From Octopus vulgaris (lineage: Eukaryota): a stretch of DNA of 64,000 nt. The notes beneath the pieces were generated by a model. It was given only the letters and a program-made list of their open reading frames with translations. It was not told where the DNA came from and ran no database searches. This document shows positions 13,201-16,200 of this stretch, piece after piece. How positions within the stretch are numbered: the first letter of the stretch is position 1; each line of letters begins with the position of its first letter. The stretch lies in assembly GCA_951406725.2 (NCBI GenBank), contig OX597820.1, forward strand, positions 70,370,001 through 70,434,000. Direction: 5' to 3'. A program made the translations under genes and the position numbers.

Positions 13201-16200
13201 ATACACACTGAGTTTTCAATTATAATAATCTGTCATATATATATATATATGTATGTATATATATATATATATATATATATATATATATGTATGTATGTAT
13301 GTATATATGTATATATTTATATTTATATATATATATGTATATATTTATATATATATATATATATATATGTGTGTGTGTGTGTGTGTGTGTGTGTGTGTGT
13401 GTGTGTGCGTACTGACCATTAGATATTAGAGATTATTTTATCACTCATTAAGTGTTCTCGCAAGGGAACGGATACTCTGCTCAATAATTCAGTGTGGTTT
13501 GATAAATTAATGTGCAACATTTGACTAGACACCATAAGGAAAATACTCCTCTGCACTTTGTCATATTTTGATTTTTGTTTACAAACAACAATTCTAATAC
13601 AAATATACTTGAGAGACTATAAGAATTAGGTGCTGATCATGAGACCGAATCCAGAAGACCGAACGTTAGAAAACCGAATTCAGATGGCCTGAAATTCAGA
13701 ATAGTGAAATCTGGAAAAACAAAATACCGAGGATACGGAATTTTGAGCAGACCTAAGACGAAAGGTATTTCAGTCGTTAGCAATCCTGTTTTTTTAAATT
13801 ATTATTTCTAGGCATAATTTATTGGAAGATATATTTTTTGATGTGTCCTTTATATTTAAGATACTAGGGCTTGATCAAAGAACAATTTGGCTGATATTTC
13901 TTGCAGTTCCAGTAACAACGTAGGCTGATTATCGTGTAAGATACAATGTAGAATCCGGACGCATTGCATTCCTTCGGTAAGTTGATGGCCAATGAGTTAA
14001 ATATATTTGTAACACTGTTTTATTAGTTGTTCCAGCACTTTAAATCATAGTCTTCATTCCGAAGACTATAATTTTATAGTCGTCATTCTGAGCCATTGAA
14101 TTTGTGAGCGTATTTTATACAGCCAATTCACATTCAAAAAGGGACAGGAAGAGAAAGGAAGAATTTAGGGAAATTGTATAAGCAAATACTTCGATCCTAG
14201 ATCGAACAAATTCCTAATCCTTTCATTGATCACGGAGTAACAAAACATAAATTTAACATGGGTCGAATTGAAGACAAAACATTGAGAGTTGAACTAAGTA
14301 CAGGCAGTAATTCTTTTAAGCCCCCAAACCGGTCCTGACCTTGTTTTTTAATTATACAAAATCAATGGCTACACATTTTGAAAGAGGAAAGGGTCTGTTT
14401 AACTTTGTAGCACAAACTTTACCGATACTGACTGCAGGAGATTAAAAATATAATCATCAGTCAAGTACTATAATAAATGTAATCGCGTGTGCCCACCACC
14501 AAAATATATAGCGTTTGTCAATGTTAGATATTAACAGCAAGATCTGAAGCCAAAAACACTACTTAGCTTTATCTTTCAATGTTTTATTCTCAAATTTCAC
14601 CAAGGTCAAGTTTATCTTTTGTTACGTTGGGATTGATTAATTGACTACTGATTCATGTAGACACTGGTTATTGTAATTATCCGTAACTGTTTTCCACAAT
14701 TATAAAGCTGTGTGCTAATGTAATAAACCAATACTTTAAATAATTGACAAAAAGAAGCTAATCATTTGAGAATCTAAACTGTTTTTAAGTCTGAGCCGAT
14801 ATTGTACGTTCACAAATTTAATTATTCATATTTAATTATTCGAAAGTAGGTGGATAAAATCAACGCACTTTTTATGATATACATTATTTTTAGTTAAACA
14901 ATAATAATTATTACAGAGATGTACTCGCATAGCAAGTGACCTGATCTGAGATCATGTGCTGAAACAAAAATAATTGCAGCATGGAAAGTGTTTAAAAACG
15001 CAAAAACAGTTAGATTCACTTCAAAATTTAAATATAATTCGTCAAAATATCTTCGTTGCTCTGACACCGCGACGTCACGGAATTTTGTCAGTGAACAGGT
15101 CGCGGTCTCAAAGCAGCAAAAATATTTTGACAATTTAAATTTAAATGTTGAAGTAAATCAAACGGTTTTTGTGTGTTTTTAAATGGCTAATAAACACCTT
15201 CAAATATTAATTATTTTAACTAAAAACCATTCTTACCAGGAGATTTTTTGGTATGTGTAAGCAAATGTTTCCGTTTTTCATAATTTGGCATGCCCGAAAC
15301 GCTTCTTTGACTAAAAGAATGAGCAGGACTCCTGTTTATTGGACTTGGAGACCCACGACACGGGGTCCCGGCACGTGATGTTTCTGTCGATGCTGAACTC
15401 ATTGGTGAGTTGTCAGGAAAGAATTGCTGGCGTTCTGGCAGAGGAGAACTGTTCTCATCGTGATCTTCTAGATCATACCAAATTAGCTGATTGTCCATAG
15501 GGGCATCGTACAAGTCCATCAGAACTTCTCCTATGAAATCATCGTCAGCCGATTTGTTAAACGACCACAAAGTAATTTCAAGCGTCAAGGACTTGAACTG
15601 AAATTAAACAAATCAAAGTAGTGTGGTTAGTAACGATTATATATATATATATATATATATATATATATAAGTGGTAAGCATATTCCACCAAATAGACAGT
15701 TTATTAAGATTATTCCTACCTTAGAATAAAACAATCAGAAGCAGAAATGAAGAGATCTATAGATAGTCGTTTGTTTACTTAAAATACATAAATTCATAAG
15801 AAAACAAAGCAGCAAGACTATACAGATACGACGAGAAAAGGGGAAAAAATATTATCAACAAATTTTTGGAAGTTGAATTTTAATATTGCAAGAAGCTTCC
15901 ATTATGCTATCATAAATGCCCCATCGTCATATATTCAGTATATTAATATTGGAAACAATACGAATTGTTAAGAACAGTTAATTGATCAAATAAATAAATA
16001 CATACTCAGTAATGACAATAATACTAAGTATACAATAATGCAAAATATTTGTATCATCAAGCTAGAAATCGTAGTTCTGAAGAGAAATAATTGTTTACAT
16101 TATTTACATTCGACGGATATTTATCCTCATCTTGTTTGTTGTTAACACAACATTTCGGCTGATATACCCTCCAGCCTTGGGGAAATATAGAAATAATCGT

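Follow-up and report, generated by a model that had tools for sequence, protein, structure and literature searches.

A putative natural G3:C8 variant of the minimal hammerhead ribozyme in the pseudo-LTR of an octopus Penelope-like element

The window analysed here, a stretch of 64,000 nucleotides from Octopus vulgaris (contig OX597820.1, positions 70,370,001 to 70,434,000), carries two copies of a repeat family, hereafter family A, with a hammerhead-like motif. The features of these copies, as read from the sequence unless another source is given, are the following.

15085..15133, + strand: minimal type I hammerhead motif with a G3:C8 core (sequence reading and fold test)
15085-15090 and 15128-15133, + strand: arms of stem I, TTGTCA and TGACAA
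15091..15097, + strand: swapped first core box, G3-U4-G5-A6-A7-C8-A9, with G3 at 15091, C8 at 15096 and A9 at 15097 (sequence reading and family counts)
15098, + strand: extra G after A9
15099-15103 and 15113-15117, + strand: arms of stem II, with one mismatch
15118-15121, + strand: second box AAAA, in which A replaces G12, followed by ATAT
15126-15127, + strand: U16.1-U17
15076..15199, + strand: direct arm of the insertion, the 3′ part of a pseudo-LTR (85% identity to a full copy, L178)
14910..15073, − strand: inverted, 5′-truncated arm of the same insertion, bearing the long 3′ end, or tail (14910-15060 by BLAST, the last 13 bases by eye)
15183..15185, + strand: ATG matching the inferred start of the RT-endonuclease ORF (comparison with L178 and a homologous N-terminus in the sister family)
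2131..2259, − strand: second, 5′-truncated copy of the same family (89% identity to a full copy)

Direct reading of the window located the letters quoted in a first-pass annotation of this DNA, both at 15081-15135 (+) and on the minus strand near 2258. That annotation did not mention that the copy at 15076-15199 forms a head-to-head pair with the inverted arm. The direct arm starts just inside a boundary that resembles a 3′ splice site and stops a short way after the inferred ORF start, while the inverted arm (14910 to about 15073) breaks off inside the hammerhead, ahead of the first core box. The motif at 15085..15133 folds no better than its shuffles (z = −0.21), and it is probably inactive because G12 has been lost and one pair of stem II is broken; as the available part of PMC13481778 reports that G12A abolishes hammerhead activity, we regard this copy as probably dead. 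The second copy, at 2131..2259 (−), has an intact stem II and GAAA box, combines C3 with C8, lacks the 5′ arm of stem I and terminates at the short 3′ end. Degeneracy, which the annotation ascribed to every copy, is thus true of both copies in the window; elsewhere in the genome thousands of copies are intact. The minimum-energy fold of an intact family copy consists of stems I and II (z = −3.27), with 0 of 200 shuffles as good.

We searched the genome (2.8 Gb, 227 contigs) and found 4,940 matches to the exact full G3:C8 motif, compared with 0 for a reversed control; in the same pattern frame, 143 copies were without G3 and 164 had G8. A pattern that allowed any letter at positions 3, 7 and 8 gave 1,934 matches, and among the first 100 matches listed, G3:C8 was present in 94 (counted by hand) and C3:G8 in none. 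The consensus that had been proposed from the window, G3 and C8 together with GAAA and stem I, turned out to be the norm across the family. Relative to the CUGANGA first box that characterizes the class, family A reads GUGAACA: U4, G5, A6 and A9 are retained, and positions 3 and 8 are swapped. Helices I and II, the G10.1-C11.1 pair, the unpaired base between 9 and 10.1, the GAAA second box (AAAA in the window copy) and an NUH cut site, UUU, are all present. A UUU triplet ending at U17 is a poor cleavage site. Helix III (A15.1-AUAU-U16.1) is self-complementary, with a predicted duplex energy of just −0.2 kcal/mol. Loop II varies across the subfamilies of family A, while the core and stems are constant. 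Four sequencing runs bearing the stretch had no alternative letter at a frequency of at least 5% at positions 3 or 8.

The motif is almost certainly a hammerhead in the pseudo-LTR (pLTR) of a young Penelope-like element (PLE). The first-pass annotation had raised the prospect of a partner Penelope element, and such an element was found, with an RT-GIY-YIG ORF linked to the motif. A complete G3:C8 motif lies about 1 kb behind this ORF in seven of the ten family A loci fetched. The core is present in eight loci (L176-178, L186-188 and L194-195, with a truncated motif in L188), and no motif was seen within the stretches fetched for L189 and L190. Locus L178 has the order motif-ORF-motif, with 4,261 bases between the motifs. 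The 1,025-residue open frame of L176 scores above the Pfam cut-off for GIY-YIG at residues 915-1005 and had no match to Pfam RVT_1; the RT assignment is based on a YVDD motif and on similarity (E-value 2e-9) to a PLE protein that does match RVT_1. A search of PDB with the ORF produced no match. Between RT and EN the family A ORF has a CX3CxxC linker, and a CX2-5CxxC linker is given as a definition of the Neptune clade in the sections of PMC8557442 available to us. Nematis also has a linker of this kind, and our tree included no named reference. The ORFs are about 80% identical among subfamilies.

A branch-point followed by an acceptor-like sequence was observed about 20 bases ahead of the core in 369 exact matches; no splice donor was located for it. 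Position 3 is followed after about 90 bases by the inferred start codon, and the 3′ ends of copies fall preferentially at two points inside the ORF, one about 30 and the other about 92 bases from its start, which puts them 62 bases apart. Among 30 copies sampled by position, the start is no more than about 15 bases from the acceptor in 28, and the 3′ end is the short one in 16 and the long one in 11. An inverted arm is present in 19 of the 30 (six of which are duplicates of one insertion), and in all 19 head-to-head pairs the long 3′ end, or tail, is on one arm only. Many 3′ flanks of the sampled copies are (TA)n. Partial tandems, an inverted 5′-truncated arm, a one-sided tail and (TA)n targets are described as PLE hallmarks in PMC8557442, in the portion available, and family A displays those of EN+ PLEs (inverted arm, one-sided tail and (TA)n flanks). 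Locus L161, considered as a tandem of full elements, was rejected, as it contains no element ORF. In L178, at 5122-5265, a predicted helix is formed by the short 3′ end and the sequence just past the splice acceptor; it encloses the hammerhead and the ORF start, and most copies start at its 5′ boundary.

The family most informative about the swap is a sister family with 54-55% protein identity over the main aligned segment, which groups with family A in a quick tree (SH-aLRT 100). Its hammerhead, at the equivalent place, has C3:G8, one compensated pair in stem II and one compensated pair in stem I; the helix III segment is not palindromic. We observed 4,406 matches to the sister motif, with C3:G8 in 94 of the 100 among matches listed. 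The nearest outgroups bearing the motif have C3:G8 (L271) or U3:A8 (L268), and another PLE family of the same genome has U3:A8. As the sister family has C3:G8 and the outgroups have C3:G8 or U3:A8, the G3:C8 swap looks derived and compensatory. The compensatory change from C3G8 to G3C8 that the first-pass annotation had put forward is therefore backed by the sister family and the outgroups. The PLE family with U3:A8, a separate and young one seen at L164 1745-4087 and in L138-L155, has numerous intact ORFs of 781 residues, and its hammerhead is without the extra base.

In an alignment of 12 rows, hand-chosen as convincing hammerheads and related rather than independent, the 3:8 pair was Watson-Crick in 12 of 12 rows (CG in five, GC in four, which represent one lineage, and UA in three). 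The structure beat 500 of 500 shuffles for cells paired, with one misaligned row (L271) remaining in the stem counts. Of the metagenome loci examined, 29 in all, four (L268, L271, L287 and L292) have a convincing hammerhead and L296 has a weaker one; L269 and L272 yielded no hammerhead candidate. Candidates in L270, L273-276, L280 and L291 were discarded, having poor stems and non-pairing letters at positions 3 and 8. The poor-stem candidates, L296, the older sister subfamily and the older relatives of family A were left out of the alignment.

The core is more variable in some of these relatives. In the older sister subfamily, 50 matches included U3·G8 in 15, C3·A8 in seven and C3:G8 in three. 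The young sister family (L196-L207 and L179-L185) has C9 in place of A9 in 84 of 100 among matches listed; this C9-bearing subfamily is the youngest and most abundant, and older sister copies retain A9. Locus L268 likewise has C9, together with U3:A8. As A9 is normally invariant, the change at position 9 is a second unusual core variant within the clade to which family A belongs. Six old, diverged relatives of family A combine G3 with C8 (four of six) or T8 (two of six) and are altered in N7 and loop II; two of the six had been selected for non-C8. In the old relatives L239, L241, L244 and L267 the spacing between GAAA and stem I is shorter by one base, so that either position 17 is absent or the base ahead of G3 is unpaired.

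We consider it probable, at roughly 0.6, that family A carries a pLTR hammerhead with a compensatory G3:C8 flip which is still a weak ribozyme and would need a dimer or an element protein. Read from sequence, the G3:C8 motif is likely to be a weak self-cleaving ribozyme; the same swap has been made in the laboratory. In the accessible parts of PMC3884650 and PMC8495972 the 3:8 pair is described as forming in the catalytically active conformation, and partly active G3:C8 mutants are described in both, as well as in PMC11167929, where a C3G/G8C double mutation partly restores the activity of a PLE hammerhead.

Several results speak against this reading: the UUU triplet at the cut site, the spread of unpaired G3·G8 cores, the C9 of the young sister family and of L268, the prevalence of U3·G8 and C3·A8 in the older sister subfamily, and an extra base that is G. 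In addition, no clear genomic footprint of cleavage emerged from a genome-wide count: 31 insertions start at the predicted cut site, compared with 29 and 16 at two control offsets, which is no excess, although the offsets are of unequal stringency and the one with 29 includes many T-run slippages. Among the 31 starts, 16 fit a fold-back on stem I; cut-site starts make up <1% of copies, and three of 289 sampled 5′ ends are exactly at the cut site. It is known for a PLE hammerhead that cleavage occurs only with protein and that it is dispensable for insertion, which uses uncut RNA (PMC11167929, available part). The missing footprint fits insertion of uncut RNA and therefore does not separate weak activity from none.

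This leaves room for an alternative that we consider unlikely but take seriously, namely that the hammerhead fold persists as a structural signal near the ORF start, for protein binding, folding or translation, with no cut made in vivo and with the 3:8 pair selected for shape. Such a role would agree with the missing footprint among the genomic copies, with dispensable cleavage and the failure to find RNA ends at the cut site in the only PLE examined for this (PMC11167929, as far as its available text goes), with the tolerance of C9, U3·G8 and G3·G8 in relatives, and with the predicted fold, in which a longer helix links the 5′ boundary with the short 3′ end. Selection for shape, however, does not readily explain why the pair in question is one that belongs to the catalytically active conformation, nor why U4, G5, A6, G12, A13 and A14 are all conserved across families that share little similarity in their flanks.

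If the motif is indeed a weak ribozyme, its history and use could be pictured as follows. In a hammerhead located some 90 bases ahead of the inferred ORF start, C3:G8 would have turned into G3:C8, likely through two changes of which one compensated the other, and the ribose of nucleotide 8 would still be held at the scissile bond in the same geometry. Two copies may pair via the palindromic helix III, and a dimer or an element protein would be required for the cut after U17. Cleavage would be slow and not needed for each insertion, yet selected over the life of the lineage. The reverse transcriptase would mostly copy uncut RNA, starting at either of two internal sites separated by 62 bases, and copying would usually halt near the 3′ splice site. 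Stubs of roughly 150-210 bases and head-to-head pairs would result throughout the genome, the insertion in the window being a decayed example. One could speculate further, as a rather doubtful extension, that the hammerhead is naturally tuned down and protein-gated, active enough for selection and slow enough for uncut RNA to be copied. If so, an excess of changes at position 8 would represent cleavage-dead RNAs winning the race to be copied, and family A with its C3:G8 sister would be a natural experiment on the purpose of PLE hammerheads.

Changes at position 8 were counted against a stem I cytosine as control. There were 346 non-C8 copies, with T in 46, G in 36 and A in 18 among the first 100 matches listed; the control cytosine, for which the pattern was stricter, was changed in 92 copies (T 72, G 10, A 10). 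The number of G3·G8 copies (164 versus 4,940) is far above the C-to-G rate at the control base (10 of 92). The G3·G8 copies occur in several subfamily backgrounds, therefore unpaired cores propagate. Their distribution is uneven: 37 of the 100 among matches listed sit on one contig. At about 1.3-11.5 Mb of contig C16 there is a dense G3·G8 cluster of one loop II subfamily, which suggests that copies were duplicated locally or stem from a local master whose core is unpaired. Descent of G3:C8 through a G3·G8 intermediate was not supported: the 33 G3·G8 copies compared come from various subfamily backgrounds, and their divergence does not exceed that of 109 G3:C8 copies (median 0.083 and 0.094, respectively, in samples chosen by pattern).

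The spread of unpaired cores could also be taken to mean that the motif is dead, two unselected transversions in one master element having restored the pair by chance before it was amplified. All family A copies come from one lineage, thus the thousands of copies amount to one event, as this explanation would have it. We think it improbable, since G3:C8 persists across subfamilies that differ in loop II, in N7 and in their ORFs (about 80% identical), and, in comparison with the sister family, the rest of the core and the two stems show conservation or compensation.

Matches to Rfam covariance models were of little help in this question. No hammerhead was among the best 150 of 238 Rfam matches for the window, and Rfam matched a hammerhead neither in an intact G3:C8 copy nor in a canonical minimal C3:G8 copy, which makes its silence uninformative. 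The first-pass annotation expected such a variant to be missed by motif searches requiring CUGA, and descriptors of this kind would indeed miss it; as Rfam misses the canonical C3:G8 copy too, its failure is not due to the swap. The number of hammerheads is underestimated by CUGA-based descriptors, as family A shows. A foldback or MITE-type palindrome with hairpins that mimic a hammerhead, to which the imperfect palindrome in the window and the Rfam result for the intact copy might point, is highly improbable and was refuted by the link to the RT-GIY-YIG ORF and by the sister family, whose motif at the equivalent site has the canonical CUGANGA box, the palindrome being an inverted truncated arm with variable junctions and Rfam overlooking a canonical minimal hammerhead as well.

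Minimal type I hammerheads with C3:G8 and U3:A8 cores are known from the pLTRs of metazoan PLEs (Cervera and de la Pena 2014, PMC4209133, available part). Family A shares with them the pLTR position, the unpaired base between 9 and 10.1, the G10.1-C11.1 pair, a palindromic helix III that implies dimers, and copies that are mostly dispersed solo stubs; the end of an intron near helix I is shared with Drosophila Penelope as described there. In PLE hammerheads an additional base after A9 and a helix III of palindromic sequence are both normal. Family A differs from the hammerheads covered in that part of the paper in its G3:C8 core, in the extra base, which is G where the consensus has H, and in a longer stem I (7-8 bp). 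The U3:A8 core of Schistosoma Cercyon PLEs (PMC4209133) and the natural covariation reported by Perreault 2011 (PMC3088659), both sources again seen in part, are likewise cases of natural covariation of the 3:8 tertiary pair. U3:A8 is reached by two transitions and retains pyrimidine-3 and purine-8, whereas G3:C8 takes two transversions and has a pyrimidine at position 8.

The closest engineered counterpart comes from the Anolis Poseidon element (PAc), the hammerhead of which is partly active as a C3G/G8C double mutant (Frangieh 2024, PMC11167929). According to the available sections of that paper, PAc resembles family A in carrying the same core swap in a PLE hammerhead, in having the hammerhead near the ORF start and in having two internal RT start sites that give a tail. 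There the swap was engineered and the element is of the Poseidon clade, while here the swap is natural and the linker is CX3CxxC (Neptune/Nematis type); family A differs also in the inferred ATG downstream of the motif and in a 62-base tail. No natural G3:C8 hammerhead was found in the mostly open-access literature searched, and an earlier case may exist elsewhere in print; the parts consulted of PMC7761336, PMC13725137 and PMC6765202 contain no such case. As judged from sequence comparison, family A presents a known kind of ribozyme in a new natural form that is putatively still active, and the PLE that bears it is ordinary in other respects. Central structural evidence for the active hammerhead fold comes from the 3:8 pair, and a natural G3:C8 family of roughly 5,000 copies beside a C3:G8 sister supplies phylogenetic covariation for it. 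Matched natural substrates (G3:C8, G3·G8, C3:G8 and C9), together with an intact cognate ORF, bear on the role of hammerheads in PLEs.

The window contains other repeats. A broken LINE at 58960-62073 (−), which we take to be RTE-like, has endonuclease- and RT-like frames; a CUGACGA...GAAA match near 59630-59680 falls within its coding frame and is probably due to chance. An abundant SINE-like repeat with tandem units of about 184-225 bases occurs at 36-638, 11988-12580, 16839-17856, 43067-43406 and 48873-49415. Long imperfect inverted repeats at 1836-1944 and 19938-20705 are possibly further head-to-head or foldback insertions.
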